Source: a plasmid. Taken from it: a stretch of 64,000 nucleotides of DNA. The translations under genes were made by a program, and so were the position numbers. Where the stretch lies: sequence record AP029160.1; one strand, given 5' to 3'. Within the stretch, counting starts at the first letter, position 1; each line of letters opens with the position of its first letter. The notes under the pieces were generated by a model that saw only the letters and a list, made by a program, of their open reading frames with translations, ran no database searches and was not told where the DNA came from. This document shows, piece by piece, positions 1,861 to 39,687 of the stretch.

Positions 1861-1960
1861 TTTTTTATACTCACTTATTTACTAATTAATCATTATTTAA
1901 TCAAATAATACTTGAATAAGTTCTATTTTTATCAACATATACCGCAAAATAGTAGATCAA

Positions 1961-2137: not shown

Positions 2138-2189
2138 TAATAATACTCCTTATTTTTAGAAGTTAAATCAAATTAACTTCTTGTTCAAT

Positions 2190-2248
2190 GGGGTTCTGGG
2201 CGCTTTGAAGGGTGAGTAGATGGACCCCTTCAAAGCGCTCGGAACCCC
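2190..2248. promoter_or_regulatory. GC-rich near-perfect palindrome (23-bp arms, 12-nt loop)
   Basis: ggggttctgggcgctttgaaggg / ccccttcaaagcgctcggaacccc, with 2 mismatches. Lies between the Phd-like gene start and the first CRISPR repeat. Confidence 0.5.
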
Positions 2249-2254
2249 AGTATG

Positions 2255-4269: not shown

Positions 4270-4274
4270 AGATC

Positions 4275-4310
4275 CTAATATAATTTCATAATTATATTAG
4301 GGTTTTTTGT
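4275..4310 (+). terminator. rho-independent terminator at the cas2-proximal end of the array
   Basis: Perfect 12-bp stem cctaatataatt/aattatattagg, followed by gttttttgtgatttt on the + strand. Confidence 0.5.
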
Positions 4311-4320
4311 GATTTTAGGC

Positions 4321-4674
4321 TCAAAAAAGTAGAATTTGAGGGAGTGGTTTTTCAATATTACCCTCGTTTTTTCCAAAAAAGACTTTTCGTTTTCCAAATT
4401 GTTTATCAGTAACCAATAATAATCTTACTTGTCCAGAAGGTGGAATTCTTTCTTGAATCATATTTTGTAAGCTTATGCTAGCTTCTTCACTTGAAAAATA
4501 GATAGCATAGACTGAAAATTGAAGCATTGTGAATCCTTTAGAAATCAGAAACTTTCTAAATTTAGTATATTCTTTCCGATCTATTTTTGTCACAACTGGT
4601 AAATCAAATAATGCAAATAGCCACACTGCGCTGTATGCTCCTGGTCCATTTATATTTTTATTATTTATTTTCAA
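4321..4674 (-). CDS. cas2: CRISPR-associated endoribonuclease Cas2
   Basis: 117 aa. Position after cas1. Cas2-like core LQFSVYAIY. Confidence 0.85.
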   Translation of the reverse strand: MKINNKNINGPGAYSAVWLFALFDLPVVTKIDRKEYTKFRKFLISKGFTMLQFSVYAIYFSSEEASISLQNMIQERIPPSGQVRLLLVTDKQFGKRKVFFGKNEGNIEKPLPQILLF

Positions 4675-4706
4675 ATAAACTCTTCTTTATAAAAATTTTC
4701 TAATTT

Positions 4707-5597
4707 CTATTTAAGAAGATTCGGTAAAATAATTTTAGGTTCTTGGGAAAGAAATGCATTAGAGAGACTTTGTGCTGATAGGGTAATTATATCCTGAAGC
4801 GGTCGTTCTTCCTTGTTGAAATTAAATTTTTTATACATAATTTCAATTAAACGTTTTTTGATTGATGTGTCTAAATTGAATGGACTCTGTAATTCTTCTG
4901 AAATTAAAAAAACTTCATTGTCAATAATTGGACGAAAAGGTTCCATAACATCATCCGCTAAGCAAAATGCATTGTACTTGCTTTTATGAAATATTCCTAT
5001 GGAAGGATTTAAGCCTGTAGCGCATAATGATCTTGCAACGACGGCCCTTAAAATAGCATACCCATAATTTAAAAATTTATTTTCGTCTTCAGCAGAAATA
5101 TCCCTTTTGAATTCTTTCATAGGATGTATATTTTTCCAATATATTCTGGCAGCCTGTGCTTCTAAATTTCCTTCGTCTCCACTTTTAACTTCTTTGCACA
5201 TTTTTAAAAGTCCAAAATGAGCACCTTTTTTTCTTAATAAAAGAGAGCCTTGAACTTCAATTTTTCGTGCAATAACCTTTTTCCAAAGTTGTTTTTTAAA
5301 TGGAATTGAAGAGAGAATCTGTTTTGCAAAACGCTGTGTTTGCGAAGAATGAGCATCAAGTGGTAAAAGCATTCCTATGGGCATGTGCCTTTCATCGCTA
5401 CAAACAAATATACTTCCATTTTCAGATAATTTTGAAAGTACTGCATGCGTGTATGTTACTGCTGGTGAAGAAACAATGAGAGCAGCAATATCAGAAAAAG
5501 GTAAGGTAACTCTATTTTCTCCTTCAATGACAAGGAGGTCATTGAAGGAGGAAAGACGCACTTTCTGAGTAGAAATATCAATAATTTTTTTTGTCAT
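4707..5597 (-). CDS. cas1: CRISPR-associated integrase Cas1 (type II)
   Basis: 296 aa. The start overlaps the cas9 stop (ATGA). Type II Cas1-like sequence. Confidence 0.9.
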   Translation of the reverse strand: MTKKIIDISTQKVRLSSFNDLLVIEGENRVTLPFSDIAALIVSSPAVTYTHAVLSKLSENGSIFVCSDERHMPIGMLLPLDAHSSQTQRFAKQILSSIPFKKQLWKKVIARKIEVQGSLLLRKKGAHFGLLKMCKEVKSGDEGNLEAQAARIYWKNIHPMKEFKRDISAEDENKFLNYGYAILRAVVARSLCATGLNPSIGIFHKSKYNAFCLADDVMEPFRPIIDNEVFLISEELQSPFNLDTSIKKRLIEIMYKKFNFNKEERPLQDIITLSAQSLSNAFLSQEPKIILPNLLK

Positions 5598-8500
5598 TCA
5601 TGACTTTCAAAAAGATCACCCAATGGGGAAACAATAATTTTTTTACATTTTAGAGCATATAATGAATTTGGTGAGACATTAGGAAAATCAGATGTCTTAA
5701 TTCTGTCACATTGAGGCCGAGCATCATGGGAAGGTGAATGGTAAATGCGGGAATCACTTGTAATAGATTTTACACTCCTTAATTTTACCTCTCCATTCTT
5801 ATCTGTTATTTCTATTATGTCTCCCTTCATTAGAGAGAATTTAAAATACCCCCCTTTTTCTTTTAGAGCATCTTTATCAATAACAGGACGATTATTCTTT
5901 TTTCTAGTCATCGCTTCTAGGCGTGAAACAACTATAGCTTCCCAGGTAACTTTTTTTCCTTTTGTAATTTCATAGTAAGCTATATGATGATTCTCATCTG
6001 CTTGAACATTTCTTTCTTGCAATCCCTTTCCAATTTGTAAAGGTGATGCTGTTCGTGCTTTTACACGCACCGACTTAATATATATTTTTTCTCCCTTTTG
6101 TTTTGCAAAAGGTCTTTTAAACTGTTCGTTATGTTTTACAATAAGGAAGGGAAGTGTTTTTTCATCGTCCAATTTGAAAGCTTTTTTTGGAATCTTAGTT
6201 CCAATTTCAGCTAATTTTCTCATAACACAATCTTTAATATTGGGATCAATTATATTTCCTAATTCTCTGTCAGTTAGTGAATCCAAAGGTTTTCGAATTG
6301 GGATATAATTTTCACCTAATTTGTCTTTGTTACTTTTACCATAGAATGTTTCCTTATGTAATGAACCATTAATTTTTCTGTCTACTCTAAAGGATATTTG
6401 AATTTTTGATACATGCTCTTGAGCTTGTTCTAATAAATTCTCCCAAATTTTATCTAATTTTCCAAATTTGCTTTTAGATTCCTTTTCCGCATTTTTTGCT
6501 GCTCGATTGAGTAAGTTTATAGATTTTTCAGATGTTAAAGCAATTACAAGTGCATCTACTGCATGATGTCTGTGGTCATTTCTTGATTTTATATTTTCTT
6601 TTGAAAGTATTGAATTTAATTTCCACATATTTCGTAAATAGGCAGTTATTTGACCAGTGCTTGCTCTTACTCGGAGATAATTGTTCCCATCAACTTCTCC
6701 TCCATAAAGAAGTCCTAGATAATTTTTTGCAAGTTTTGTTGCATAACGGGTATCATTTAACATTTGGCTAGCAAAATCTTGTTCACTTGTTGCATCTTTT
6801 TGCTTAAAAAGTTGTATTTTTTTATATTTCCCATTTCCTTTGAATTTTTCAACCCTTTTTAATATTTCTGAGTATTTTTCTGGACTGCCAATCCCATAAG
6901 CTTCATACGGGGTTTGGTTTTTTTTAACATTTCTATTTTCAAAATAATGGCAAAGAGTTTTATTTAAAAAAGAATCATCAAGACTTCTACTCAAAGGTAC
7001 AATATGTTCCACATCAAATTGAGGATTTTTCCCAAAGAGATCTTCCATGCTTATTATCTTTCCTGTATAGGGGCATTGATAATTGCATTCAACATATAAT
7101 AGATATTTTTCAATATCAGACTTACTTATTTTAAGGCTTGGTGAGTATTCTAATATTTTATTTTCTGCTTCTACTCTTTCGCTAGCACGACTTTTATTAG
7201 CCTTTAAAATATTTTCTCTAAACTCTTTTCCTTTTTTGAGTTCACGCGCAAGTTCTATTCGTATCTGTTTAGGTTTTCCGTACTTCTTGATTATGCTGTT
7301 TACAATTTTTCGAAGCTCAGACAAAGTTCTTGAAACTATCGGATTGCGTAAAGAAGGATCGACTTTACCATAAGATGGTAATAAATTAAAAATGTTTTTA
7401 TCGTTTTCATCTTTATAACCTGCATTTATTTTTGCTTCATAAAGATCCTTTCCTTCTCTTAAAAATGGAAGGATTTTTTCAACTGCGGTACTACTATATG
7501 CGAGGTAGCCTTCTTCTAAATTTATTTGAGAAAGTTTAGATGCTGTTTCTGAGTCTAATTTCCATTTTTCTTTAAAATGCTTTTCTAGTGCAATTTGTGA
7601 ATCAAAACTAATTAAAGCATTTACAATTTTTTCTTGATCAATTTTACTATGAGAGAAGAATCCACTGTAAACACTGAAAATTTTGCTAGAAGTGGTATCT
7701 CCTTTCACTTCATTTTCATCATATTTGAATTTTTCATCTTTTTCCAAGTTTAATATTTTTTTTAAGTAAGAAACTTTTATTTTATCTTTCTTTAAAAATT
7801 CATTGAAAATAATCTCTCTCTCATAAGGGGTCAATGATCTTTCTGTAGTAGTTGAAAAGCTATTTATAATCCGAAAATTATTTATCGTTTGTTTTGCTCT
7901 AAATTCTTGTGCATTTAAAAATGCAATTTTCATTCTTCTTTTGTCTTTTTCAAGTTTACAAAATCCAATAAATTTTTTAACAGATTTAAGAGGCCTTTGG
8001 TGAAAAATAGATTTATATATATTTTTTTTAACTTCGTTGTTTTCAAAAAAATGATTATTGCCTAATGAAATTTGTGAGCTTATAATTTTTTCATATTCTT
8101 CTTCATACATTTTTCGAGAAGTATATTTTTTTCTAATTCTAATTTTATCAGGTTCAAAAGTTGAAAAAAGTTCTCCTAAAGTTCTAAATTCACTTTCTTC
8201 CATGTTCTCATATAACTTTTTAATCCCTCCTAAAACATTGCCAGTTTCAGCACTTTTACCAGATTTCCTATTACTTAAAAATCCTCTTCTTTGGCCTAAA
8301 TGAAACAATGCCCTACCTATTTCAAAAGGCTCTAATTTTTCATCTAATGCAATTTTACGCAAAAAATAAGGAAACACATTTGGAAGAGTTTTTTTATAAA
8401 TTTTATATAAATGTGGTTTGTGAGGGAGTACGAGACTCCATTTTTTTAATAAATCTATATCTAAATCTCTAATTATTTCTTGTCGAACTTCAAGCATTCT

Positions 8501-8857
8501 GCGTCTTATTTCTTTTTTTTTGGCTTGATTTGATATATTTTCTTCAAATGGGGAATTTATTTTTCCTAGTTGTGATTTAGAGAAGTTTGGGAGCAGAGAT
8601 GATTCTTGTAAAATTTTAAATAATTTGTTCATGCGCATCATACGACGATCTCGTGCTCTACGTGTTAAACGTGCTTCTCTTCTTTGAGCATTTTTAGAAC
8701 TTTCTGTGCCGAATTGATCTCTATTTACACCCTCATCAAAAATACGTACCCCCATTTTTTCAATATTTTGTTTTTCTTCATTGATTAGGCTCCAACCAAT
8801 ACTAGATGTTCCAAGATCTAAGCCCAAGATTAATTCATTAGTAGTTAAAGAACTCAT
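5594..8857 (-). CDS. cas9: Cas9 (type II-C size class, 1087 aa)
   Basis: RuvC-I motif LGLDLGTSSIGWSL at the N-terminus, HNH motif DVEHIVPLSRSLDDSFLNKTL, RuvC-III HHAVDALVIALT. No csn2 or cas4 in the locus. Confidence 0.93.
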   Translation of the reverse strand: MSSLTTNELILGLDLGTSSIGWSLINEEKQNIEKMGVRIFDEGVNRDQFGTESSKNAQRREARLTRRARDRRMMRMNKLFKILQESSLLPNFSKSQLGKINSPFEENISNQAKKKEIRRRMLEVRQEIIRDLDIDLLKKWSLVLPHKPHLYKIYKKTLPNVFPYFLRKIALDEKLEPFEIGRALFHLGQRRGFLSNRKSGKSAETGNVLGGIKKLYENMEESEFRTLGELFSTFEPDKIRIRKKYTSRKMYEEEYEKIISSQISLGNNHFFENNEVKKNIYKSIFHQRPLKSVKKFIGFCKLEKDKRRMKIAFLNAQEFRAKQTINNFRIINSFSTTTERSLTPYEREIIFNEFLKKDKIKVSYLKKILNLEKDEKFKYDENEVKGDTTSSKIFSVYSGFFSHSKIDQEKIVNALISFDSQIALEKHFKEKWKLDSETASKLSQINLEEGYLAYSSTAVEKILPFLREGKDLYEAKINAGYKDENDKNIFNLLPSYGKVDPSLRNPIVSRTLSELRKIVNSIIKKYGKPKQIRIELARELKKGKEFRENILKANKSRASERVEAENKILEYSPSLKISKSDIEKYLLYVECNYQCPYTGKIISMEDLFGKNPQFDVEHIVPLSRSLDDSFLNKTLCHYFENRNVKKNQTPYEAYGIGSPEKYSEILKRVEKFKGNGKYKKIQLFKQKDATSEQDFASQMLNDTRYATKLAKNYLGLLYGGEVDGNNYLRVRASTGQITAYLRNMWKLNSILSKENIKSRNDHRHHAVDALVIALTSEKSINLLNRAAKNAEKESKSKFGKLDKIWENLLEQAQEHVSKIQISFRVDRKINGSLHKETFYGKSNKDKLGENYIPIRKPLDSLTDRELGNIIDPNIKDCVMRKLAEIGTKIPKKAFKLDDEKTLPFLIVKHNEQFKRPFAKQKGEKIYIKSVRVKARTASPLQIGKGLQERNVQADENHHIAYYEITKGKKVTWEAIVVSRLEAMTRKKNNRPVIDKDALKEKGGYFKFSLMKGDIIEITDKNGEVKLRSVKSITSDSRIYHSPSHDARPQCDRIKTSDFPNVSPNSLYALKCKKIIVSPLGDLFESHE

Positions 8858-8926
8858 TTTTAGTACTCATAATAAAAGGATAAGAAAAAATTGACTTTTC
8901 TAATAAAACAAATTATTTAAATTTGT

Positions 8927-9024
8927 AAAGCATATCAAAGCGGTTATTCCATTGCTTGCTTTAGCAAGGGTTTATGCCCGCAGCCTTAAAAAGCTAGAGG
9001 GGCTTTCGTGGCTCCTCTTTTTTT
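8927..9024 (+). ncRNA. tracrRNA: predicted tracrRNA
   Basis: The first 14 nt of AGCATATCAAAGCGGTTATTCC (8929..) equal the reverse complement of the repeat 3' end, 20/22 overall, and an imperfect match continues further. Then an AAGG...CCTT nexus-like segment, then a terminator hairpin GAGGGGC-tttcgtg-GCTCCTC plus T7. A TTGACT -35 lies at 8891-8896. Confidence 0.75.
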
Positions 9025-9375
9025 GTTCTGTTGCAAAGATTTCAAAGTAACAAAGAACCTTGGAATTGATTTTCAAAACGACTATTCCAGACGCAATTAT
9101 CCAGCGAGGGAGCTAAATTGCTCCCAAATAGGCAAATGACTTTTAAATTTGAATTGCCCTTTTCTGAGCATATGATGGAGTTCAATACCTGTTAAAGTAG
9201 CTTTCGCCAATTTCAATGAGAAGAAACCAAACATAAGCTTCACTTTCTTTTTTATAAATCGATGGTCTTGTTCTACAAGATTATTTAGAGATTTATTTTG
9301 TCTTATTAAGATCTTATCTTCAGATTTAAGATCTTTGTTGATAACATTTAAAACTGCAAATACAAAAAATAAGTG
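9025..9375 (-). mobile_element. 3' remnant of a divergent IS6-family element
   Basis: GTTCTGTTGCAAA inverted repeat at 9025 and a transposase C-terminal coding remnant (...IWEQF.SLAG). It differs from the main IS6 copies in the subterminal region. Confidence 0.65.
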
Positions 9376-9428
9376 AATTTAAATATTTTTTTATCATTAA
9401 TTTTTCATTTCGATTAAGATTCATAAGC

Positions 9429-10331
9429 TTATTTTACCGCACCACTATCAATCAATGAGTGTTCTTTATGAGCATTTAACATTTGTTCATCATCAATTTT
9501 TCTTTCTCTTGATTCTAAATTTTTATAAATATAATCATCTCCATTTGTCTTTTCAGTAAGATGAAAATGTTTTAGTTTTAGCTCTATGTTTTCACGTTTA
9601 AGGGCTTCTTCTTTTTTAATTGACTCTAATTTCTCTAATAAAACAGCTTTATCAATTTCAAGCTTTTGAATGCTAAGAGCATTTAGTTCTGCTTTTTTAA
9701 GCCTTTCTTCAAGTTCCATAATTTTTTTCTTAGCTTCAAATTCCCTCTCTTCATAAGCACTATTCAATTTATTTTTATCCTCAAGTTGCTTCTTTAAGAT
9801 TGCAAGATCGCTTAAAAGCTGATTCATTTTTGCTTCTTGATTTTCAATAATATCTCTTAAAGATAAAATTTCTTTTTCTTTTGCTTCAAGCTCAAATCTT
9901 TGCTTCTCTTTATTTTGCAATACAAGATCAGTAAATTTTGCTTCTAATTCTTGATTTTTGCGTTCAAATTCCTCTTGTAGTTTTCCTTCTAATCCCTTTT
10001 TATATTCTTCAAATTCCCCCCTCTCTCTATTGAGTTCTTGCAATTCTTTTTTAGCTTGTTCCTGCATTTCAAATGCAATCAAGAGTTGCGAGCGATTAAG
10101 CTGGTTCAATCGGTTTGTGAGAATATCCACTTCTGCCAATGCTTTTTTTTGCTCGCTTTCTTCAGGTAGTGTTTGCATTTTAAAGGCTTCAACAGCGGCT
10201 TTAAAATATTGTTGCGGTTTCATTCCAGAGCGGTTGATTTCATTTTGAAAAAATTCACGCTCCTCAATAGAACTACAACGAAATTGGATTCTTGGATCAA
10301 TTTTTGAGGTGTTTACTTCTTCTATTGTCAT
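9429..10331 (-). CDS. coiled-coil protein with MobC-like RHH N-terminus
   Basis: N-terminus RIQFRCSSIEEREFFQNEINRSGMKPQQYFKAAV resembles the MobC ribbon-helix-helix. The remainder is heptad-rich E/K coiled coil. Confidence 0.35.
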   Translation of the reverse strand: MTIEEVNTSKIDPRIQFRCSSIEEREFFQNEINRSGMKPQQYFKAAVEAFKMQTLPEESEQKKALAEVDILTNRLNQLNRSQLLIAFEMQEQAKKELQELNRERGEFEEYKKGLEGKLQEEFERKNQELEAKFTDLVLQNKEKQRFELEAKEKEILSLRDIIENQEAKMNQLLSDLAILKKQLEDKNKLNSAYEEREFEAKKKIMELEERLKKAELNALSIQKLEIDKAVLLEKLESIKKEEALKRENIELKLKHFHLTEKTNGDDYIYKNLESRERKIDDEQMLNAHKEHSLIDSGAVK

Positions 10332-10522
10332 TTAAATTTCCCTTTTCGATTGAATTATTTTTTTAAAGATAAATTCATTATTCCTATACTTATCAATACC
10401 TTCTATTTTAGCGAATTCAGTGTTTTTATTTATTGTGATTTGATTTTTTGGAATTTGGTCTGGAGCATCTCCCATGATTGTAGCTTCAGGAACATTATTT
10501 TTTTTATGTATAAAAGCACTTC

Positions 10523-10987
10523 TTAATTCATAATTTTTAAAAAAAAATCGACTCTAATACAATTATCAGAAATAATTTCATAAAAATGAAAACCACTTTT
10601 TATTTTAACATTATTAATTTTAATATCTTTTTCAAGAGCAACTATATTTTGATTTTTAAAAAAATTTAATTTTTGAATTTTATCACTTTTTTCAGGATTG
10701 AATATAGTATCCTGAACAGCATCAAAATTCATTATAAAGAGCGATTTTTGATCTTTTCCATGCTCTTTATTTTTTGAATATTCTTTAAAAAATGTATTTA
10801 ATCTTTTATCTAGTTTTTGTTTTATATAATATTTTTTTATTGTTGGACAAGCGAGAAATATAAGAGTACCAACGGTTCCTATTGCAGCAACCCATGTTCC
10901 TATTGCGGTTATAAAATACCATGCGGTATCCCAAGTCCATTTTGAATCAATAATATGTTTAAATTGACAAAAAATATAATCAAACAT
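10523..10987 (-). CDS. membrane protein (start trimmed to internal Met to avoid overlap with the integrase)
   Basis: Predicted TM segment WYFITAIGTWVAAIGTVGTLIFLA. Lies downstream of the integrase. Confidence 0.3.
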   Translation of the reverse strand: MFDYIFCQFKHIIDSKWTWDTAWYFITAIGTWVAAIGTVGTLIFLACPTIKKYYIKQKLDKRLNTFFKEYSKNKEHGKDQKSLFIMNFDAVQDTIFNPEKSDKIQKLNFFKNQNIVALEKDIKINNVKIKSGFHFYEIISDNCIRVDFFLKIMN

Positions 10988-12014
10988 TTTTATCTCCTCT
11001 TTCTTTTTGATATTTAACTTTTCTTGCTGCACTTTCTTTTTCTTCATCGGTTTTCCGGATGTACATCATGGTGGTCATCATACTTTTATGACCAAGGAGA
11101 TCTTGAATTTCAGACAAGGGAACCCCATTCCTGTGAAGATGACTTGCAACAGTGGCACGGCAGGAGTGCGGGCTAATTTCTTTTGTAATTCCATGCTCAC
11201 GCGCAATACTTGTCACCATGCGCGCAAGGTAATCCCGATTGATTGGTTTTTTTGAGAACGGTGTAAGAGCAAAGAGAAAATCCTCTTTTTTAGCAAGAGG
11301 TCTTAAAGTAACAATGTAGCTTTTAAGGAGTGCGGCTAATTCATCACTTATTAAGGGAGCATGAATTTCTCCGCCTTTGATTTTCAAATGCAGCCTAGGG
11401 TATTTTCCTGTCAGGTCCAGATCTTTAATTTTGAGGGAACACAATTCTGTTGCTCTCATCCCTACGTGTGAGAGCGTGCTAAAAACGATGAAGCGAAGCC
11501 ATGCCCGATAATCCTCTTTTACTTTAAGAGGGTTTGTTGCTTTCTTATAGGACTCTTCGAGCGACTCTAAAATGCGAGCAATCTCTGCTTCTGATAATGC
11601 CTCTGTTTTCCCTTTAGATTTCTGTACTTTAGGCAAGCGTATGGCAGCCCCAGCATTTCTATCCACCCATCCTTCTTGAAACGAAAATTTAAGGAAGGAC
11701 AAAAGCGGAGAAAGCTTTGCGCACACCGAAGACGGCGGGTATGTGGCCAAAAGATAGCGTTTGTACGCATCCACATGATCTCGTTGAATTTCAGCGAGGC
11801 TTGCAAACGCAACCCCTTTTTCTAAACAAAATGCAAAAAAATCCCTTAAATGACGGGCATAATTTTGTCGTGTGTTATCACTTACATAACTGCCTAAAAA
11901 TCGAGCTTGTTTTAAGGCGATTTCAGGGGGGGATTTTTCAAAGTTGGTACTAGGAGACCCCCCAATTGAAGTTGAAGGTTGCTCTATGGATTGGCAATAT
12001 TGAGTTTCAGGCAT
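10980..12014 (-). CDS. tyrosine site-specific recombinase/integrase
   Basis: C-terminal catalytic signature HSCRATVASHL...LLGHKSMMTTMMYI (R..HxxR..Y). Confidence 0.85.
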   Translation of the reverse strand: MPETQYCQSIEQPSTSIGGSPSTNFEKSPPEIALKQARFLGSYVSDNTRQNYARHLRDFFAFCLEKGVAFASLAEIQRDHVDAYKRYLLATYPPSSVCAKLSPLLSFLKFSFQEGWVDRNAGAAIRLPKVQKSKGKTEALSEAEIARILESLEESYKKATNPLKVKEDYRAWLRFIVFSTLSHVGMRATELCSLKIKDLDLTGKYPRLHLKIKGGEIHAPLISDELAALLKSYIVTLRPLAKKEDFLFALTPFSKKPINRDYLARMVTSIAREHGITKEISPHSCRATVASHLHRNGVPLSEIQDLLGHKSMMTTMMYIRKTDEEKESAARKVKYQKERGDKNV

Positions 12015-12338
12015 CCGTACCCTCCTCTAAATGTGCTTTTTAAGTCAATTTAAAATTTTTTGTCACACTCATGTATACAAAGTAAATTTAAACTTGTCCA
12101 TGTATCCAAAGCGTCACCTTTTTGTATCCAAGATTTTAAATGTCACCATAAAGGATACAAAATCGCATAATATACATTATGCGACAAGTAAAACCAAATT
12201 TTCGCCAAAAAACCATAGGAAGATTTTATTTCAGACTTTTAAAAATAAGAATAAGATTGAATTATAAAGCTTTAAAGATGGTTTATGATTCATAACCACA
12301 ACGAGTAGCGAAATAAGAAGGTCTCTGTTAGGCTCCCC

Positions 12339-12956
12339 ATGATTTCTTTCAAAGGAGAGAAAATGGAAAACCCAAAATCACCGTTTGCAATTGCTCACTA
12401 TATTTATAGCGAAATAAACAAAGGTAAATCCAGCCATACTCTTGAAAGAGAGCTTAAACTTAGTAAATACTATATAAATAAACATATTTGGCTCTGCACA
12501 TGGCCAAAAGAACTTGTTGATTCCTGTTTATTCTATCCTGATATTTTTACACCTCGCATTTTATTTTCCACATTTGCTTCAAGACAAAAATATTATTCAA
12601 AAAATGAATTTGAATACCTTAGAACAGAAATTGAAAAATTAATTCAAAAAGGTGCTAAACATAAGCCCAGGAAAGCAGTCAATTACCCCAAAATGAGGGC
12701 AGGCGGTTCTCTTATAACACAAAGAGTTAGAAAAGAAAATCTTAAAAAAATTGAAAAAGAATTAGCTATAAAAAAGAAAATAAATGAAGAATTGAAATTG
12801 AATTTAGAAGAACTTTTGTATTATCAACAGCAATTTAAAGAACTTCTTGGATTTCATGTTGTAGTACAATATTCTAAATCAAAACAAGAGGGAGAAATCA
12901 GAATCAACTTTAAAAATGAAAAAGATTTAGATTATTTACTCAGTAAAATGAACTAA
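12339..12956 (+). CDS. hypothetical protein (205 aa), possibly DNA-binding
   Basis: ORF track. Basic and lysine-rich. Located in the integrase islet. Confidence 0.35.
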   Translation: MISFKGEKMENPKSPFAIAHYIYSEINKGKSSHTLERELKLSKYYINKHIWLCTWPKELVDSCLFYPDIFTPRILFSTFASRQKYYSKNEFEYLRTEIEKLIQKGAKHKPRKAVNYPKMRAGGSLITQRVRKENLKKIEKELAIKKKINEELKLNLEELLYYQQQFKELLGFHVVVQYSKSKQEGEIRINFKNEKDLDYLLSKMN

Positions 12957-13014
12957 AAAATCAGGATAAAATTTGATGTATTTAAATACAAATGAAATTT
13001 ATAAGTAGAATCAT

Positions 13015-13650
13015 ATGCAAAATCAAGAAATATATCATTTCACACATAAAGATAATATTGTTTCTATTATTAAAAGTAATGGGATTTTTTCAACAAATAA
13101 TGGTAAAATAAATAAAATTGAATTTAAAGATGCTTCTTATCTTAATATTCAGGATCGAAGAAGTCGCGCTCTAGTCAATACAAAAATAAATGGTGTTTTA
13201 CATGATTATATACCTTTTTATTTTGCTCCTCGCTCTCCAATGTTATACGCCCACTATAAGAACAAAGTAACTTCTAAAATAAAACAGTCGGATTTGGTAT
13301 ACTTGGTATCTTCCATTGGTTCTGTGGTAAACGATAAATTAAATTATGCTTTTACTGACGGCCATGCTGCTCAAAACATATCTAGTTTTTTTGATGATTT
13401 AAAAGATCTCAATCAAATAGATTGGCCCCTGATGAAAGATAAAATGTGGAATAATACTTTGGAAGATACGGACAGGACAAGACGCAGGCAAGCTGAATTC
13501 CTGGTAAAAGATTTTTTTCCATTTCAATTAGTTCATAAAATTGGGGTCTTTGATGAAAGTAATAAAAAATACATTATATCCATTCTAAAAAATAATGATA
13601 AAGAAAATATGGTAAAACATGTTTTTATCGAACGTTATTGGTATTTTTAG
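13015..13650 (+). CDS. darT: DarT ssDNA ADP-ribosyltransferase toxin (DUF4433)
   Basis: YHFTH N-terminus, HDYIPFYFAPRSPMLY motif, RRQAEFLV catalytic-Glu motif. A macrodomain partner gene follows. Confidence 0.8.
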   Translation: MQNQEIYHFTHKDNIVSIIKSNGIFSTNNGKINKIEFKDASYLNIQDRRSRALVNTKINGVLHDYIPFYFAPRSPMLYAHYKNKVTSKIKQSDLVYLVSSIGSVVNDKLNYAFTDGHAAQNISSFFDDLKDLNQIDWPLMKDKMWNNTLEDTDRTRRRQAEFLVKDFFPFQLVHKIGVFDESNKKYIISILKNNDKENMVKHVFIERYWYF

Positions 13651-13659
13651 GGGGCAAAG

Positions 13660-14694
13660 ATGATTGAAAATAAATATGAAGATCTACTTGATAGCCAAAC
13701 TGAAGCTCTTGTAAATACTGTCAATTGCGTTGGGGTTATGGGGAAAGGGATTGCATTGCAATTTAAAAAAGCATGGCCAGATAATTTTAAAGCATACGCA
13801 AGTGCTTGTAAAAAAGGTGAAATACGCCCTGGAAAAATGTTTGTTTTTGAAACTAAAAACAAACTTATTATAAATTTCCCAACTAAAGTTCATTGGAAAG
13901 AAAAGTCAAAAATTGATTTTATTATAGAAGGTCTTGAAGACCTTGTTAAAGTTATTGAAAAATATAAAATTAAATCTATCGCTCTTCCTCCTCTTGGTTG
14001 CGGAAATGGAGGGCTGAATTGGAAAGATGTTCAGCCACTCATTACTAAAGCATTTAAATCATTTCCTGATGTTCAAGTTTTTTTATACCCCCCCGCTGAA
14101 AATCGAGTTGTAAAAAAAGTTTCTCTCCAGAAAGAAAATTTAAAAATGACTCCAGGGAGAGCAGCCTTATTATCATTAATGCATTTTTATCGTGGCGGAG
14201 CTTACCCACTGACTAAAATTGAAATTCAAAAGCTCGCTTATTTTTTACAGAACGCAGGTGAACCCTTGCGTTTAAAATATGAAAAACTCCACTTTGGACC
14301 TTATGCTGAGAATTTAAATCATGCTCTTCAAAATATGGAAGGTCACTTCATTCTTGGATTTGGGGATAGACAACAGCGTTCAGAGATTCGACCAGTAGCT
14401 CATGCTTTAGAAAAAGCTCATGAATTTCTTAGTGAGTATCCTGAAACTCGTGAAAGAATTCAAATTGTATCAAAATTAATTGAAGGATTTGAAGATTCAT
14501 TTGGTCTTGAACTTTTAGCAACAGTGCATTGGGTTCTGCAAAATGAACAAATATCACCTCAAACCATCGAAGAAACAACAAAACATATCCATCGTTGGAA
14601 TGAGCGCAAAAAATTAATTATAAAAGAATCACAAGTAGCTGTTGCTATGAAAAGATTAAGTGAACACAATTGGATCATTATTAATAAGAACTAA
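13660..14694 (+). CDS. darG: DarG antitoxin (N-terminal macrodomain)
   Basis: Macrodomain motifs NTVNCVGVMGKGIALQFK and ALPPLGCGNGGL. Begins 10 bp after darT. Confidence 0.8.
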   Translation: MIENKYEDLLDSQTEALVNTVNCVGVMGKGIALQFKKAWPDNFKAYASACKKGEIRPGKMFVFETKNKLIINFPTKVHWKEKSKIDFIIEGLEDLVKVIEKYKIKSIALPPLGCGNGGLNWKDVQPLITKAFKSFPDVQVFLYPPAENRVVKKVSLQKENLKMTPGRAALLSLMHFYRGGAYPLTKIEIQKLAYFLQNAGEPLRLKYEKLHFGPYAENLNHALQNMEGHFILGFGDRQQRSEIRPVAHALEKAHEFLSEYPETRERIQIVSKLIEGFEDSFGLELLATVHWVLQNEQISPQTIEETTKHIHRWNERKKLIIKESQVAVAMKRLSEHNWIIINKN

Positions 14695-15028
14695 AGTCTT
14701 ACACATATCATTTGACGTCATACGCAACAGCTCTTCAGAAATAGGTAGGCGGTAAGTAACTCTTCCAAATAGGGCGATATTGGTATTTAAATAATTATAA
14801 TTATTATTTAAACTAGAAAGTTTTTTTTTAATTCTGCCATTACTCAATTTAAAATGTATTTATTGGCAGTTTAATTTTGGCATGAGTTATGGCAGAGAAC
14901 TATCCGCTAAAACAGATGCAAAAACACCTCGAAGTTAATTATGCCAAAAACCTTGGTTTACGGCAGAAAATTTAAATAGATAGATGTAACGGCGCGCATT
15001 CCTAGGAGCATGGGCGCGCACTTATCCG

Positions 15029-15140
15029 AAAATTTGGGCGCAAATTAATTGAAATTATCGTTTTGCTTCGGCGCACATTAAATGAAAACGAGAGAATCTC
15101 GGCGCACGCTATTTGAAATCGGGCGCAAGATAATTGAATC
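15029..15140. repeat. GGCGCA-unit repeat element, copy 1 (4 units)
   Basis: Tandem units (G)GGCGCA(A/C)-AT-rich-TTGAA. A second copy at 46563..46648 lacks one unit. Confidence 0.5.
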
Positions 15141-15253
15141 TATAATAATTCTCATTGAAGCCTAAAATAACTCAAAAATGTATCTCAAATAAATCATTTG
15201 AATTATAAAAATTATTAATTTAGAATATAAAAAAATAAAGAAGGATTAAAATT

Positions 15254-15991
15254 ATGTTATTTTTAAAAATATTAATTTTGTTTCTATTTAATATATATTT
15301 TTCATTGAATATTTATTCAAATGATTTTTTAAAGGGTGGATGTGAATCAGATTTTCCACCTTATAATTTTTATGCGAATAATAAGCTAGTAGGTATAGAC
15401 ACAGAAATTATTAGTTTAGTATTAAATAAAATGGGTGTTCATTTTACTGTCGAAACATATCCTTGGTCAAGGGTTATTATATTGCTTCAAAAACAGGAAT
15501 TAGATTTTGCATGGCAATTTATTGATACTCCAGAGAGAAGAATGGATTTTAGTTTAGCAGGACCAATAAGAAGTGGTGAAACTGTTTTTTTTGTACCTAA
15601 AGACTCTAAAATAAAATCTTGGAATCAATTATCTGATTTTAAAAACCTTGTTATAGGAACTACAAGAGGTTATAAATATACTAATGAGTTTGATAATAAT
15701 AAAGATTTAAAAAAAGAGGAATCTAATAACAATCAAACACTGGTTTTAAAAACTATTGGTAAAAGAGTTGATTTATCTATTGGAGATAAAAACACCATCC
15801 TTTATATATTAAAAACAACAAATAATTTAAATAAAATCAGATTTTTAGAAAAACCATTAAAAATCGTACCAAGATTTGTTGGATTTTCTAAAAATCACTT
15901 TAAATTGTCTAAAAAATTCCAATTAACTTTAGAGAAGGTTATTAACAAAAAAGAATATAATGATATAATAAATAAATATATCAATGATTAA
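15254..15991 (+). CDS. family-3 solute-binding protein (SBP_bac_3-like)
   Basis: Signal peptide, then TEIISLVLNKMGVHFTVETYPWSRV, a periplasmic amino-acid-binding fold pattern. Confidence 0.55.
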   Translation: MLFLKILILFLFNIYFSLNIYSNDFLKGGCESDFPPYNFYANNKLVGIDTEIISLVLNKMGVHFTVETYPWSRVIILLQKQELDFAWQFIDTPERRMDFSLAGPIRSGETVFFVPKDSKIKSWNQLSDFKNLVIGTTRGYKYTNEFDNNKDLKKEESNNNQTLVLKTIGKRVDLSIGDKNTILYILKTTNNLNKIRFLEKPLKIVPRFVGFSKNHFKLSKKFQLTLEKVINKKEYNDIINKYIND

Positions 15992-16789: not shown

Positions 16790-17749
16790 CTAACTTATTC
16801 CTAATTTAAGAATTTCTTGATTGAATTCTTGAGCCTTAGAACCGACTAATTGACCTTTTAAAAACAATCTTAGCTCATTATTTTTTGAATTTAACAAATC
16901 GCATAAATATCTATTTGTGTATCCATTTCTAGCTAATTTTGCATCAAGGCCATTTATTTCAGGAACAAGAACAGACTGAACAATTTCTTTCGTAACAGGT
17001 TTAACACCTATCATGTATGCTTTTTGTAAAGAACTGCTCAAATACTTTATCACTTGTAATGGAGTTAAAAGACTTTCACCAGGTAATTCTATTGCATCTT
17101 GATTTAATATATCTTTTGGTTTGATATTTTCTGATACGGCTTGTTTTATTATCCATTCGCAATATTTCGCCTTGTTTTCAAGAACACTAAACATATGACT
17201 TCTTGCACCAATTTCTTCATTTTTGGGATGATTTAGTTCGTTGCTAAGCTTTGGTTGGCCTACAAGAATAAATGTAATTTTCCCTTCAGTATCTTTATCT
17301 AACTCTCGAATCTTTTTAAGTCCAATGAAGGTTTGTGTATTTAATTCATGTGCATCATCAATGAGTAAAACAAGATTTTTTTTGTGTTTGTTTAACAGCT
17401 CAATAAGCTTTCTTTCTTTTTTTTCAGCTTTCATGTAACTACCTATATTTTTTTCTTTTACAAGATCTGAAAAAAATGCGCTAAAAATAAGAGGAATTGA
17501 AACTGCTTGTTTTTCTGTGGAAAGAGAGCGACAAACAATTATATTCTTTTCTTCTTGTAATTTTTTTAAGGTTTTATCAAGCAAAGTCGTTTTACCAGAA
17601 CATGATAAGCCTGTAACAACAACAATTCCTCCTAATCTTATACTAAAATGTAAGTCATCCATTAGTTTTTTAGATTTTTCATTTTCAAAATAAGGGACAT
17701 CTGAAAATCTTTTTAATATTCCAAAGTGATTCATCACATCAACTTCCAT
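16790..17749 (-). CDS. TniB-like AAA+ ATPase (transposition helper), paralog
   Basis: Walker A GLSCSGKTT, Walker B LLIDDAHEL. Homologous to 36703..37686. Confidence 0.7.
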   Translation of the reverse strand: MEVDVMNHFGILKRFSDVPYFENEKSKKLMDDLHFSIRLGGIVVVTGLSCSGKTTLLDKTLKKLQEEKNIIVCRSLSTEKQAVSIPLIFSAFFSDLVKEKNIGSYMKAEKKERKLIELLNKHKKNLVLLIDDAHELNTQTFIGLKKIRELDKDTEGKITFILVGQPKLSNELNHPKNEEIGARSHMFSVLENKAKYCEWIIKQAVSENIKPKDILNQDAIELPGESLLTPLQVIKYLSSSLQKAYMIGVKPVTKEIVQSVLVPEINGLDAKLARNGYTNRYLCDLLNSKNNELRLFLKGQLVGSKAQEFNQEILKLGIS

Positions 17750-17766
17750 ATTGACCTCATTTATAT

Positions 17767-18470
17767 TTAATCATTCACACATGTTCTGATTGTAAAAAAC
17801 ATTTTAATCTTTTCCATAAGGATCTTTTTACATAAAGATTCTGAAATAAATTGCTCTATTTGGTTTATTTGATTATCCAATAAAATTGAGAGAGGCTTTC
17901 CTAAATACATAGATATTGCTATTTTTGCATCTATTGGGTCTTTAAAAAATAATTCACTTTCATCATATTCTTTAAATGGAATAAATTTATCTACATTTTC
18001 TTCAATAAAACCTGTCTTCTTTATTACATCTATTATTTCTTTATCTTCACAATTCATTGTCATTATTGCTCTAGGAATTTTAATACTTTTTACTAAAGAA
18101 CTTATTTCTTCATCTTGTTTTTCATTTTTTGTTTTTTTAAATGAGCGATAAGTTCCTAATGGAATAGGATCTTCTGACTTATAAAAAGGACCAAATTTTT
18201 CACCATTAAATTCAGCATAAACTTCATAATCAAAAACTCCTACTAAAATTGTTACTATTTCTCCAGCCATTTCTGGTAATAATTGATATTGAATTCCATC
18301 TAATTTAATTCTTGCATCTGAGCTGACTTTTCTCTCAACTGGTTCACGCGCCATTTGACAAAATTTCTCCCAAGAACACATTTTGCTGTAACCTTTTTCA
18401 GGTAAGTTTAATTTGGGGTTATTTGCAAGAATCCCCGAGATTGTATACCAAAGCTGACTTATTATTGAAA
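17767..18470 (-). pseudogene. TniA-like transposase, C-terminal fragment only
   Basis: Aligns to the C-terminal ~235 aa of 37697..38893 (MCSWEKF...REPVER...LDGIQY). The N-terminal DDE core is missing. The ORF 5' end beyond 18470 is unrelated. Confidence 0.6.
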
Positions 18471-18542
18471 ATAGAGGATATCTTTGTTTTTGACGAGTAT
18501 AAAATCCAAGTACCTGCGTGAGAATCATAACGATGATGATTC

Positions 18543-21500
18543 TCACAGTTTATTTTTTACATGCTTTGATATTTTGTCCAAGTTTAATTTTCCTTCTTTT
18601 TTAGTGAACTCGAAGCGACCAAATAAATTGATGTGCTGCCAAGCTACAGGAGACATGGATTTTATTATATCTTCATTCCATTTTCCGTGTGCCATTAAAT
18701 TTGAAAATATAGATTCATTATAATAAATAATACAAAGCGTAATAAAACGAGCACAAGCATCCCAGACTTGCTGTTCTTCTTCTGTTTTAAATTTTAATTT
18801 ACCAAAATTTGCATACCCAACCGCTCGCTTTAATTGATGATAGCTTTCAACTCTGTTTAAAGCTTTTTGTACACCTTGTCTGAGTTCTGACGAATCTAAA
18901 TAGTCAAGCAAATAGATGCTTTTTAGAATACGATTATATTCCCATAAAGCATTTTTTGTTTTACTTTTATGAGTATGCGAGCTTATCTTTGCTGTTATTA
19001 TGCTCTGTGTAGTTTTTTTTATGCCAAGAGAATCATAATTTTTTGAATATTTTCCCATTCTTCAATTATAATTCTTGTATTAAATCTCTTTTTTGGTCTT
19101 AAATTTAAATGACTATAATCGCTTATATTTTTAAAAGACCCTATGGAATCAGTAAAAACATCATAAAAATCTTTATATCGGGGAGCGAATTGGTACCCAA
19201 ATGTATACAAAATTGCAAAATTTACATCATTAGTTCCATGTGTATCTGTTGAAAAAACTTCAGGATGAACGTCGCTTTTATTGCTAGATATTATATCATA
19301 AACATGATGGCTTTCATGATCATTTGCGCTAATTATTTTTGAATTAGTAGGAAGGATATTACCAACCATTGAATATGAAACAATACCTTTTTTTCGACCA
19401 AAATATTTAGGTGAATGTCTTGCATTAATAGTTGATACTTTTACCTCAAACTTTTGACCATCTCCAGCAAAATGAGCTAGCGAATTAATATGATACTTAG
19501 AAAAAATTGGTGATTTATAAATTTCGTTTGTGATTTTATCACAAGCATCTTTCACTGTTTCTAAGCGAATAAAGTTTTTTAAAGATGAGTATAAATTATT
19601 GTAAGAAAGATCTGAAACATCAGAAATTTTTTTAATACCCATATTAGTAGCTATAGCAATAATACAAGCAGTTATTGATTTTATATCTGCTTCTTCCTTT
19701 GTAAATCGACATAAAATATGCTCGAAACAGTCCATAATATTTGCGTTTTTTATGGCAAAATATATAACATCAATAAGATCTATTTGCTCCAATGACTCAA
19801 ATAAGTATTGGTTTACATCCTCAGATGATGAAGGAGTTTTTACATTCCATCTTGATTTTTTTAATGTTTTATTTTGTTCAAAATATATATTTTCACCTTT
19901 TTCAATTTTATTGTTTACCGTTATTAATTTTTTTTCGTATATTTCTTTTAGTTCATTTAGATGCTTTTCTGGTTTTTTATTGAAATTCTTTAGACCTAAT
20001 TCATGTATAAAATTATCTTTATTTTCCCATTCTTTATTTGTAACTAATTCACTTGCTAGGCTTTTATATTTTACACTATCCGAACAGTAAATAGAACCTG
20101 ATTCTAAATTTTCACAAATAAGCATATAGATCAAATATTCACATCGATCATAGCTGACTTTATTGTCATTAATTATATATTTTAAAAATTTTTTCGGTAT
20201 AAAATTTTCCTTAAATTCAAATATATTATTTTTATCTAAGTTCTTTTTTGATATGTGATTTTTTAATATATTCAACGCTTCTATCAATTTTGAGTTTTTA
20301 GATAAAAATTCAAAATCTATATTCATAATAATTGGTCTTAAATTTTTTTTAATTTTTTGATTTATTATTTCTATATATTCCCATTCAAATTCACTTTTAT
20401 CAAAACTTGCTTTATTTTCAATATAATCAGCAACAACTGCTAAAAGATTTTCCCTCAATAACGTAAAGGCTCTACCTTTTGTTTTTAAAAAAGTTTCGCT
20501 TTCAGGTATTTTTTTATCTAAAAATATTTTTAATATTTTACCTGCTTTAGGTACGTATTCATTCCCTTCTATCTTGTATTCTAGTATCTTTTCATCTGCA
20601 TAAAGCTTATATTCCGCTTCAAATAAATTTAAATTATACTTTAAAGCATTAATCATGTTATCATTATATTTATGAAATCTATGAAATAAAAAACAAATTA
20701 TATATAATCTTACAATTTTTATATCTCGAATATTTAATCTATATACAGAGTAAAATTCAACTAAAGAAGCATAATATTTTATACTTTCATTTGAAATCAT
20801 AAGTCTTGGAATTAAATTTTTTATTTTTATATAAAATTTTCTTATTTTACTACCTCTTATTATTTCTTCTTTTATTTCACCATATTTGAAATCTTTTGGG
20901 CTATGTTTTAGTGATGTAATTTCATATGTTTTATCTTGTTTTAGTTGTATTAATTTATTTAACTCATTTGAAAATCCAATATCTATATTTTCTTCAATAA
21001 TATTTATCAATCTTGATTCTTCTGAAAGCAATATTTTGCTTATAAAATCTTGCATGTATGAATATCTTGGAATAATAATTTTATTTTCATCCAAGAAATT
21101 AAAAAGTTCTCGAAAAATGTATTTTTGTTTTGCACTTATTTTAACTAGATTTAGTGCCTTTTCCTCTAATATTTCTAAATCTTTTTTATCAAAGTATTTA
21201 TACTTGAAAATATCTAATATTGTTTTTTTATTTTCAGTTGATGTTATTTTACTTACATCTTGTATTTTTTTTATACTTAAAATACTATTCTTAAAATGTT
21301 TCTCAACAATAAATTTAATATCTTCTTCAACTTCATTTAATTTAAAAGAAAAAAATCTATATTTAAATTTGAAATATCCCAATTGTAAAATAAAATTAAT
21401 TTTTGAATTTAAAATTCTGAGTTTATTTAAAGCAATATTTTCCTTGTGTGATAAATCAAAATAGATTTCTCTTTCTTCATCTGAAAATAGTGGTCTTTCA

Positions 21501-21595
21501 TAAATTAATTTAATTTCATCAGGTTTAAGAATAGTGAGTCGATTTGAATGGTGCTCACTTTCTTCTTTGTATTCATCATCAATTTCCAAAAGCAA
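18543..21595 (-). pseudogene. tnpA: Tn3-family transposase TnpA, split by a frameshift (858 aa + 171 aa ORFs overlapping at 19019-19058)
   Basis: The C-terminal ORF carries the Tn3 DDE C-terminal signature (RVESYHQLKRAV...INLFGRFEF). The two ORFs are contiguous, total ~1030 aa. Confidence 0.7.
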
Positions 21596-21609
21596 ATTCC
21601 TTATTTATT

Positions 21610-21715
21610 TTCTTAAAAAGTGTACTTTATGAGACATGCCCATTGACGTGTCTCAATAAATGTCTCAAAATACAGTTCTCATAAAGTCAAAGACATTTCG
21701 AGACATATTGGGGGC
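21610..21715. promoter_or_regulatory. res site between divergent tnpA and tnpR
   Basis: Multiple TGAGACA / TGTCTCA inverted half-sites (tgagacatgcccattgacgtgtctca ...). Confidence 0.5.
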
Positions 21716-21719
21716 AAAA

Positions 21720-37686: not shown

Positions 37687-37696
37687 TTTTACATCC

Positions 37697-39501: not shown

Positions 39502-39687
39502 TTTGGCCTCATTTTTTGGACAGGGTTTTTCGGACATAAAAAATCTAGTAAATTCAATACATGAAAACAAGTACTCTTGGTTGTAGTCAAAGATACCTCA
39601 TATTTTTTGAAATTGTTTCGAATATTTCTAATATTGCATTTATTTCGTTTATGTGGTAGAATATGCTGTGAGTTAAGAAAGGATATT

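Follow-up and report, generated by a model that had tools for sequence, protein, structure and literature searches.

Plasmid stability loci that pair multimer resolution with a toxin-antitoxin system include parCBA-res-parDE of RK2/RP4, ccdAB-resD/rfsF of F and cre-lox of P1. In the layout of RK2 parCBA-res-parDE and F ccd-resD, the crossover site doubles as a control region (PMC6312765). In the single-recombinase Xer systems XerS/difSL, XerH/difH and XerA/dif (PMC5357621, PMC2731167) a lone Xer-like gene neighbours a dif-like site whose inverted arms enclose a 6-bp spacer. In the pdif modules of Acinetobacter (PMC13141974, PMC6449649, PMC9455709), dif-like plasmid sites, present as paired XerC/XerD sites and served by host XerCD, are tied to the shuffling of accessory and toxin-antitoxin cargo. 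Here we compare these systems with a block of genes carrying a DarTG toxin-antitoxin pair within a 64-kb stretch of sequence record AP029160.1 (64,000 nucleotides, hereafter the window; G+C content 30.5%) from Pigmentibacter ruber GTC16762 (Silvanigrellaceae, Oligoflexia). A preliminary description had listed six open reading frames (ORFs) here, all of which were recovered at the same positions, and had read DarTG as cargo of a small integrative/mobilisable element. We favour, with moderate confidence, a different reading, in which positions 9349-14985 are a fragment of a typical Silvanigrellaceae plasmid backbone module, acting as a host-independent multimer-resolution/stability locus; its carriers possibly include phage-plasmids. 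The fragment would now lie within a mosaic riddled with IS6-family insertion sequences (IS).

A dif-like site in a divergent control region

Alignment of the divergent intergenic regions of related loci (given below by number, such as L014) revealed a perfect palindrome at 12163-12184, TCGCATAA-TGTATA-TTATGCGA, composed of 8-bp inverted arms around a 6-bp spacer and located 149 nt upstream of the ATG of a recombinase gene. When compared with the E. coli dif sequence (PMC3025954), 20 of 28 positions were equal, the whole TGTATA central hexamer included. The palindrome is unique in the window (0 expected, 100 shuffles). No second dif-like site beyond chance was found within the 64 kb or in the related loci (up to 3 mismatches, full-site and arm-only patterns), and there is therefore no attL/attR pair. 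The intergenic region upstream of the recombinase gene contains a site, its arms conserved and its spacer variable, in 11 related loci (L003, L014-L016, L018, L019, L022, L023, L027, L028 and L001, the last being the same sequence as the window), and the palindrome is present in every related locus that retains the intergenic region. The spacers (TGTATA, GTAACC, CTAACC and GATTAC) are lineage-specific. Conserved arms around a variable spacer are the signature of a tyrosine-recombinase core site. A weak palindrome was also observed in L015, at 3991-4006.

The gene beside this site (10980-12014, minus strand) encodes a 344-aa Xer-like tyrosine recombinase, in agreement with the integrase called in the preliminary description. 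PF00589 was matched with an E value of 1.4e-29, the SAM-like N-terminal domain PF02899 is also present and the catalytic set R-K-H-R-H-Y is complete (R187, K211/K213, H283, R286, H309, Y318). The top NCBIfam profiles were XerA (132.9 bits, cut-off 220), XerD (129.2, cut-off 329.6) and XerC (114.6, cut-off 335), with XerS at 62.5 (cut-off 267), whilst the top PDB matches were XerA (5hxy/4a8e), XerD (1a0p) and XerH (5jjv, at an E value of only 1.7e-10). The arrangement resembles the single-recombinase Xer systems in its lone Xer-like gene, inverted arms and 6-bp spacer, and a near-perfect palindrome suits binding by a homodimer. However, the window recombinase is not an orthologue of those enzymes (63-133 bits against cut-offs of 220-335), modules of its type sit on plasmid-sized accessory elements rather than at the chromosomal terminus, and its gene shares an operon with genes for a membrane protein and a ribbon-helix-helix (RHH)/coiled-coil protein.

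The likeness to the RK2, F and P1 loci lies in divergent operons placed around a crossover/control site, with the recombinase and a toxin-antitoxin pair on opposite sides, on a replicon of medium size. The window differs from RK2 and P1 in having a Xer-like recombinase in place of the serine resolvase (RK2) or Cre (P1). Moreover, a KorB-like gene heads the toxin-antitoxin side, and the cargo is swapped among relatives for defence systems (CBASS, PDC-M02). A dif-like core within a divergent promoter region is, judged on gene layout, the arrangement of a resolution/crossover module and not of an integrated island. We propose that the Xer-like recombinase and the dif-like site in its divergent control region would form a self-contained site-specific recombination unit, in which a recombinase homodimer would bind both arms of the palindrome and swap strands across the 6-bp spacer. 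It would chiefly serve to resolve replicon multimers, as do Cre/lox, ResD/rfsF and RK2 parCBA-res. The sequence comparisons show the domains and catalytic residues, the conserved position and uniqueness of the site, the break in the mosaic at this site, the changing defence cargo and the carriage by plasmids in relatives. We infer that recombinase and site are cognate, that the unit resolves multimers, what the RHH and KorB-like proteins do and that DarTG is active.

Four copies of a bipartite motif, GTCAC-N4-5-TGTATMC (GGATACA...GTGAC on the other strand), were counted by direct reading of the intergenic sequence at 12062-12159, all on the recombinase side of the core; a strict pattern search returned 2 matches against 0.03 expected. 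The motifs are kept in L003 and L014, and other repeats are found instead in L018 and L019, where the recombinase arm is only ~50% identical. They are candidate accessory or operator sites, and the RHH and KorB-like proteins would probably bind the repeats beside the core as regulators or architectural factors.

The palindrome could also be read as a mere transcriptional operator or bidirectional terminator of the divergent operons, bound by the KorB-like or RHH protein, with the mosaic structure described below arising by homologous recombination inside this short conserved stretch and the recombinase acting elsewhere or being a relic. We consider this quite unlikely. KorB-type proteins do bind palindromic operators (a structural match was found to the KorB-operator complex 1r71), a terminator scan flags the palindrome as a hairpin, and it lies within the divergent promoter region. 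However, an 8-bp arm consensus with a freely varying 6-bp spacer, equal to dif at 20/28 positions, has the architecture of a tyrosine-recombinase core. The arms are kept though the KorB-like proteins of L003/L014 are only ~30% identical to the others, which argues against an operator specific to the KorB type, and a conserved patch of ~20 bp is a poor substrate for RecA-dependent exchange. Moreover, resolution sites as a rule also serve as regulatory regions (PMC6312765).

The module in relatives and probable exchange of its arms

The same gene order, in which the KorB-like gene is divergent from the genes for the recombinase, a small variable protein and the RHH/coiled-coil protein, was found in Silvanigrellaceae elements of ~40-76 kb. 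These include S. aquatica CP017835.1 (42,228 bp), which also encodes a TrwC/TraI relaxase, located 7-10 kb away and not adjacent, F. sanaruensis AP019370.1 (68,835 bp) and an S. paludirubra record labelled as a plasmid (43,952 bp); CP017835.1 and AP019370.1 are absent from annotated collections. The module was also found on metagenomic contigs of 15-76 kb, and some carriers have ParA-like genes and one has terminase genes. Related Silvanigrellaceae genomes are known to have plasmids (PMC12321486). The four genes of the block other than darT and darG form a conserved module in the backbone of plasmid-sized elements, present in three or more cultured species of Silvanigrellaceae, and only DarTG is the variable part. 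L029, a 62.9-kb contig of a Spirobacillus cienkowskii metagenome-assembled genome, carries the module together with ParA and the large and small terminase subunits (16874-19684). At least some module carriers may therefore be phage-plasmids, in which case the module would function in the manner of Cre/lox.

Recombinase homologues (45-93% identity) came almost entirely from Silvanigrellaceae and Bdellovibrionota. Among the search matches, none was on a contig larger than 76 kb and none was on the 3.59-Mb chromosome of the other sampled P. ruber assembly. No match was found in PLSDB by megablast of the region or tblastn of the integrase, and scans of IMG/VR and JGI metagenomes with the integrase alignment returned one close partial locus and otherwise distant integrases.

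A closer inspection of the homology on either side of the core reveals that the window is most similar to different relatives to its left and right. BLAST homology to L014-L016 runs through the recombinase gene and ends at 12181, whilst homology to L018/L019 begins at 12162-12177 and runs through the KorB-like gene. The sequence flanking the core is 88.5% identical to L014 on the integrase side and 46% on the KorB side; the corresponding values are 50% and 76% for L018 and 52% and 69% for L019. The proteins follow suit: the window recombinase and RHH protein are 92% and 90% identical to those of L014, against only 30% for the KorB-like protein, which is 73-80% identical to its counterparts in L018, L022 and L027, whose recombinases are only 50-57% identical. 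Across loci, the integrase and RHH identity matrices agree and the KorB-like matrix disagrees. Relatedness thus flips at the palindrome, and the window is therefore a hybrid whose two arms are joined there. Read from these comparisons, the flip indicates a crossover at the palindrome.

As a by-product of resolution, co-resident elements with equal spacers would form cointegrates and trade arms. We further suggest, tentatively and with some doubt, that the unit is an exchange point for the whole family, at which elements with equal spacers fuse, re-resolve and trade arms carrying defence genes (DarTG, PDC-M02, CBASS, Fic and CRISPR-Cas). An unlikely variant is that the site is a device for integration or exchange and not for resolution, either an integrative mobile element exploiting Xer (IMEX) or a one-site relative of pdif, which recombines with the chromosomal dif or with the sites of other plasmids and so moves defence-carrying arms between replicons with its own recombinase or host XerCD. 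The resemblance of the site to dif is in keeping with this, as are hybrid arms that break exactly at the core, the presence of both parents of the hybrid among the lineages with a TGTATA spacer and the chance that the module sits in the chromosome of GTC16762; pdif modules carrying toxin-antitoxin genes are documented (PMC13141974, PMC6449649). However, each locus has a single site and none flanks the cargo, and the 64 kb contain one dif-like site and hence no attL/attR pair. The cargo differs between KorB-like genes that are 73-80% identical, the break being the stop codon and not the site, and arm exchange is also an expected side effect of an ordinary resolution system. Unlike the Acinetobacter modules, with their paired sites and reliance on the host enzymes, the type found here has one symmetric site per element, a dedicated recombinase and a cargo boundary that is not a site.

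Genes of the two operons, DarTG and the cargo slot

In the multimer-resolution reading that we favour, a leftward operon would comprise the genes for the recombinase, the small membrane protein, the NikA-like RHH/coiled-coil protein and a 126-aa protein (truncated here), and a rightward operon the KorB/ParB-like gene followed by a cargo slot. The neighbours of the integrase are of the kinds given in the preliminary description, namely an RHH/coiled-coil protein, a membrane protein and a basic protein of helix-turn-helix (HTH) type. The small single-pass membrane protein (10523-10987, minus strand) is listed as a 174-aa ORF reaching 11047, and is probably 154 aa long, starting at Met21. It contains one hydrophobic segment (residues 48-67, Kyte-Doolittle 1.9). 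Identity to the L014 copy is 34%, against 90-93% for both flanking genes, and DNA homology to L014 breaks at 10346 and 11009, on either side of the gene. The gene (10347-11008) is a gene-sized replacement, the hypervariable middle gene of the recombinase operon, and its hypervariability suggests an exclusion, immunity or other conflict-related function.

The 300-aa acidic protein (9429-10331, minus strand) is predicted to consist of a putative N-terminal NikA/MobC-type RHH domain and a coiled-coil helix of ~200 residues. Its AlphaFold2 (AF2) model has an extended segment followed by helices at residues 22-35, 39-53 and 56-261, the long helix with model confidence (pLDDT) >90, and the secondary structure of the head fits beta-alpha-alpha. 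A NikA-like match at E <= 0.1 was obtained for 11 of 14 N-termini; a profile of the RHH N-terminus gave no meaningful match to PDB sequences. The protein is 90% identical to the L014 copy, and its 90% cluster holds GTC16762 copies only. Searches of PHROGs returned no match for the accessory proteins.

On the other side of the core, a basic ParB/KorB-type DNA-binding protein of 197 aa is encoded at 12363-12956 (plus strand). The ORF is listed from 12339 (205 aa), and the true start is probably Met9 at 12363, which is preceded by a good ribosome-binding site, AAAGGAG; the protein has an isoelectric point of 9.6 and is 100% identical to GTC16762_31550, annotated as 197 aa. It is laid out as an HTH domain, a basic linker and a ParB C-terminal dimerisation domain, and its AF2 N-domain was modelled with a pLDDT of ~90. 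The top Foldseek matches in the PDB were the KorB DNA-binding domain (8qa8/1r71), Spo0J (1vz0), SopB (3mkw) and the ParB C-terminal domain (5noc), with Noc also matched (probability 0.97-1.0, E 0.02-0.3). These matches split between the confident N-domain, which resembles the DNA-binding domains of KorB, Spo0J, SopB and Noc, and the tail, which resembles the ParB C-terminal dimerisation domain. The protein shares with the KorB/ParB family the HTH DNA-binding fold and the C-terminal dimerisation domain. It differs in beginning directly with the HTH, without the N-terminal ParB/Srx CTP-binding (CTPase) domain, and in having no adjacent ParA gene, and its support at the level of sequence is sub-threshold. 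No ParA gene was found in the window; in L022 and L029, ParA-like genes lie several kb away from the module.

The cargo slot of the window is occupied by darT and darG, co-oriented with the KorB-like gene. DarTG2 systems act by reversible thymidine ADP-ribosylation in single-stranded DNA (ssDNA), resulting in abortive infection (PMC5179494, PMC9967889). DarT (13015-13650, plus strand), a predicted ssDNA thymidine ADP-ribosyltransferase toxin of DarT2 type, matched PF14487 (E 3.4e-56, 190.6 bits, cut-off 22.5), the PADLOC DarT model (E 6.5e-62), the NCBIfam equivalog toxin_DarT NF048013 (214 bits, cut-off 150) and PDB 7omv (E 1.3e-35), and has ~45-50% identity to the Thermus enzyme where the two align. 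The motifs FYFAPRSPMLY and RRQAEFLV are found at residues 68-78 and 157-164. The catalytic Glu and the NAD+/thymidine-contacting residues of Thermus DarT are R51, H65, Y71, M78, H119 and E160 (PMC9967889). R49, H63, Y69, M76, H117 and E161 of the window protein align with them, the crystallised Thermus chains having Ala at the Glu position (E160A mutant). The catalytic Glu, whose loss the preliminary description had named beforehand as grounds for rejecting its assignment, is thus present.

DarG (13660-14694, plus strand) combines an N-terminal macrodomain hydrolase with a C-terminal DarT-binding domain. Its Macro domain matched PF01661 (E 5e-23), and the macrodomain matched PDB 5m3i (E 1.7e-50) and 5m31 (E 1e-46). 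Over its full length it matched PADLOC DarG (E 1.8e-133), with 441 bits for NCBIfam antitoxin_DarG NF048014 (cut-off 250). Residues 184-333 matched 7yk3_B, the C-terminal chain of M. tuberculosis DarG that binds DarT (E 5e-21), and K76 and W79 correspond to K80 (the catalytic Lys) and W83 of the Thermus aquaticus protein (PMC9967889). The pair is complete, and is canonical and ordinary DarTG2. As in the systems of T. aquaticus, M. tuberculosis and E. coli, darG lies directly 3' of darT (here with a gap of 9 nt), all six DarT active-site residues are present, DarG has a TARG1-like macrodomain with the catalytic Lys and a DarT-binding domain, and both proteins score above the NCBIfam equivalog cut-offs. 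No structural difference from these systems was seen, and what is new is the host lineage (Oligoflexia/Silvanigrellaceae) and the genomic setting. The complete pair with its two motifs and N-terminal macrodomain had been called in the preliminary description, which proposed a check by hidden Markov models for DUF4433 and the macro domain; both are above curated thresholds, and the Pfam, PADLOC and NCBIfam cut-offs are passed. GenBank already labels the toxin as DarT, and the 90% clusters of DarT and DarG, among 15 billion proteins, contain only the GTC16762 copies. In its host, DarT would ADP-ribosylate thymidines in ssDNA and block replication, the DarG macrodomain would strip the modification and the DarG C-terminal domain would sequester DarT, so that the pair could act in abortive-infection phage defence and/or post-segregational stabilisation (addiction) of the element. 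Downstream of darG, a non-coding stretch (14740-14985) is the last backbone-like sequence before repeats beside SBP genes; two separate intergenic places in the module-bearing metagenomic contig L015 match it at 95.5% identity, over 157 nt and 90 nt.

Homology among the loci ends at the stop codon of the KorB-like gene, where no conserved junction motif was found among them, and beyond this point the slot is filled differently. L003, L014-16, L018 and L022 carry the PADLOC candidate PDC-M02A/B (DUF4365 and a partner of ~380 aa), L022 having in addition a CBASS cyclase and an effector with four transmembrane segments (4TM). L019 has SocA_Panacea (a Panacea-domain antitoxin) with Fic, L027 a set like DUF6932/PDC-M63A, and L029 MazE-PIN followed by a type I-F CRISPR-Cas system. 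CRISPR-Cas also abuts the other arm of the module in L014 and in the window, where a type II-C system consists of cas9 (5594-8857), cas1, cas2 and 31 repeats, with Cas9, Cas1 and Cas2 identified by Pfam. The starts of cas9 (8857) and darT are 4.16 kb apart, as expected from the defence cluster, with CRISPR-Cas at ~4 kb, of the preliminary description. CRISPR-Cas thus appears to be a recurrent cargo of plasmid-like elements carrying the module. Given the variable contents of the slot and the adjoining CRISPR-Cas loci, the recombination module is therefore the centre around which a hotspot of defence and toxin-antitoxin genes is built, and DarTG is the occupant of this hotspot in GTC16762.

Several features of the CRISPR-Cas loci were observed in passing. 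The II-C array of the window (2255-4269) has 30 spacers of 29-30 nt; no protospacers were found in the window or in the 30 fetched loci. A likely trans-activating CRISPR RNA (tracrRNA) is encoded at 8920-9025 (plus strand), with an anti-repeat at 8923-8945 complementary to the CRISPR repeat and, at 8996-9018, a terminator formed by a G+C-rich hairpin and a T-run. In L014 a type I-F variant system with a Cas7fv-like protein (9206-14269), and in L029 a type I-F system with Cas2-3/Csy4 (1710-7842), lie directly beside the recombinase module.

Edges of the block and its mosaic setting

The left break of the module is an IS6-family remnant of ~270 nt (9086-9357, minus strand), which matches the 3' portion of the IS copies at 92-95% identity. 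It truncates a fifth module gene (9326-9424, minus strand), of which the first 25 codons remain (MNLNRNEKLMIKKYLNSLIFCICSF) before the frame enters the remnant. The matching gene of L014/L015, next after the RHH gene, encodes 126 aa, and nucleotide homology to L014/L015 starts at 9349. The likely tracrRNA lies between the start of cas9 and this remnant, and the CRISPR locus and the module are therefore separate blocks joined by IS activity.

With this in mind, the island envisaged in the preliminary description, a ~5.3-kb integrative/mobilisable element whose integrase placed it, with DarTG as cargo, in a chromosomal att site next to CRISPR-Cas, is very improbable. It has in its favour an intact tyrosine recombinase, the absence of the block, as far as sampled, from another P. 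ruber chromosome, and a NikA/MobC-type RHH protein that could be a mobilisation accessory factor. However, the att direct repeats suggested near 9400 and 14700-15250 did not materialise. A search for direct and inverted repeats over 8800-15300 gave only AT-rich matches at chance level (70-85% identity), with no credible direct repeat linking 8.8-9.5 kb with 14.65-15.3 kb. The 64-kb window contains no tRNA genes (0 by ARAGORN), and scans of its ORFs revealed no relaxase. The left boundary is the IS6 remnant that cuts into a module gene, the only site of recombination type lies inside the block, between the two operons, and the module is plasmid backbone in relatives. The block is nonetheless accessory, as had been proposed, with no integrase-family match on the other P. 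ruber chromosome and with 90% clusters of DarT, DarG and the 300-aa protein confined to this strain. In a comparison for presence and absence, the 3.59-Mb chromosome of the other P. ruber yielded no copy of the module; however, the surroundings are scrambled by IS6 copies, without a definable empty site.

The exact DarG sequence is encoded in read set DRR523861, which is from strain GTC16762 (PMC11385108), and other proteins of the window carry the locus tags GTC16762_31460 to GTC16762_32140. By their numbering, these tags fall close to where the chromosome record gives way to that of plasmid 1, pGTC16762-1 (PMC11385108), so that a chromosomal and a plasmid location are both compatible with them. 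The window is a dense mosaic of mobile DNA, with at least seven IS6-family copies, at least six of them full, whose transposases match PF13610 DDE_Tnp_IS240. It also holds a split Tn3 transposase, two Tni-type modules, IS200/IS605 and a group II intron. A compact Tni-type transposon (36507-40980) ends in 182-nt inverted repeats (91% match) and encodes, besides a TniB-like ATPase and a TniA-like transposase, a serine resolvase and a toxin-antitoxin pair of HTH_17 and PIN; another Tni set, at 16790-18546, is degraded. The Tn3-family transposase is present as two overlapping ORFs of 858 and 171 aa (18543-21595, minus strand), with a frameshift as the probable cause, and adjoins its resolvase (21660-22274, plus strand); at the resolvase end, 21590-22133 shares 98% identity with a locus on the chromosome of another P. 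ruber strain. The group II intron (62972-64000, minus strand) has its Rfam RF00029 domain at 62972-63048 and an ORF for a reverse transcriptase/maturase at 63066-63971, and its insertion point is the end of synteny with the other P. ruber chromosome.

Iteron-like repeats of ~22 nt (GGCGCA..ATTAAWTGAAA), in sets of 5-6 spaced ~22-33 nt apart, were observed at 14990-15144 and 46563-46647, each set adjoining a gene of the SBP_bac_3 family. The repeats 3' of darG were considered as a replication origin and rejected, as they recur at 46.56 kb beside another SBP gene; they are probably no plasmid origin because this second copy lies in sequence common to another strain's chromosome. In a Logan short-read graph of GTC16762, the darTG cassette is its own unitig (L002), ending at 12977 and 15051, and contig L001, from a different sample, spans window positions 9314-14105. 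The branch points of the unitig may reflect similar flanks elsewhere in the genome, for example a second copy of the module on one of three plasmids.

Several points weigh against a plasmid-derived resolution locus. No genes for replication, partition or transfer were seen among the ORFs of the 64-kb window. Two parts of it (46.3-49.4 kb and 55.9-63.0 kb) have a counterpart with 99.4-99.8% identity on the chromosome of another P. ruber strain, next to serS and grpE; because of this identity, the module in GTC16762 may itself be a chromosomal, possibly decaying, remnant. The recombinase falls below every NCBIfam Xer equivalog cut-off and is no orthologue of XerC, XerD, XerS, XerA or XerH, and the dif-like site might instead be served by host XerCD. 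For the RHH protein, the NikA-like family PF21983 is matched above the gathering score by the homologues P0118 and P0121 (29.3 and 31.3 against 27), and by the window copy with an E value of only 0.05; for the KorB-like protein, the match to PF23552 ParB_C (E 3e-4) falls slightly short of the gathering score. Evidence for the breakpoint comes mainly from a single hybrid, the window, set against a small number of loci, and each step of the reading draws on sequence and predicted structure. Whichever replicon carries the GTC16762 copy, the block is accessory and of plasmid type.

The backbone module of recombinase, dif-like site, KorB-like protein and RHH/coiled-coil protein in Silvanigrellaceae extrachromosomal elements was previously undescribed, and is a clean example of mosaicism arising at a site-specific recombination core. 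DarTG itself contributes a new host lineage only. The slot in which it sits provides a natural inventory of defence and toxin-antitoxin systems, as well as a place to seek new ones, the unannotated 155-aa and 300-aa genes of L027 and the hypervariable membrane protein being candidates. If the exchange of arms between elements with equal spacers is real, the exchange point would be a one-site analogue of pdif shuffling in Acinetobacter, with its own recombinase and dedicated to immune genes, in a family that includes the emerging human pathogen P. ruber.

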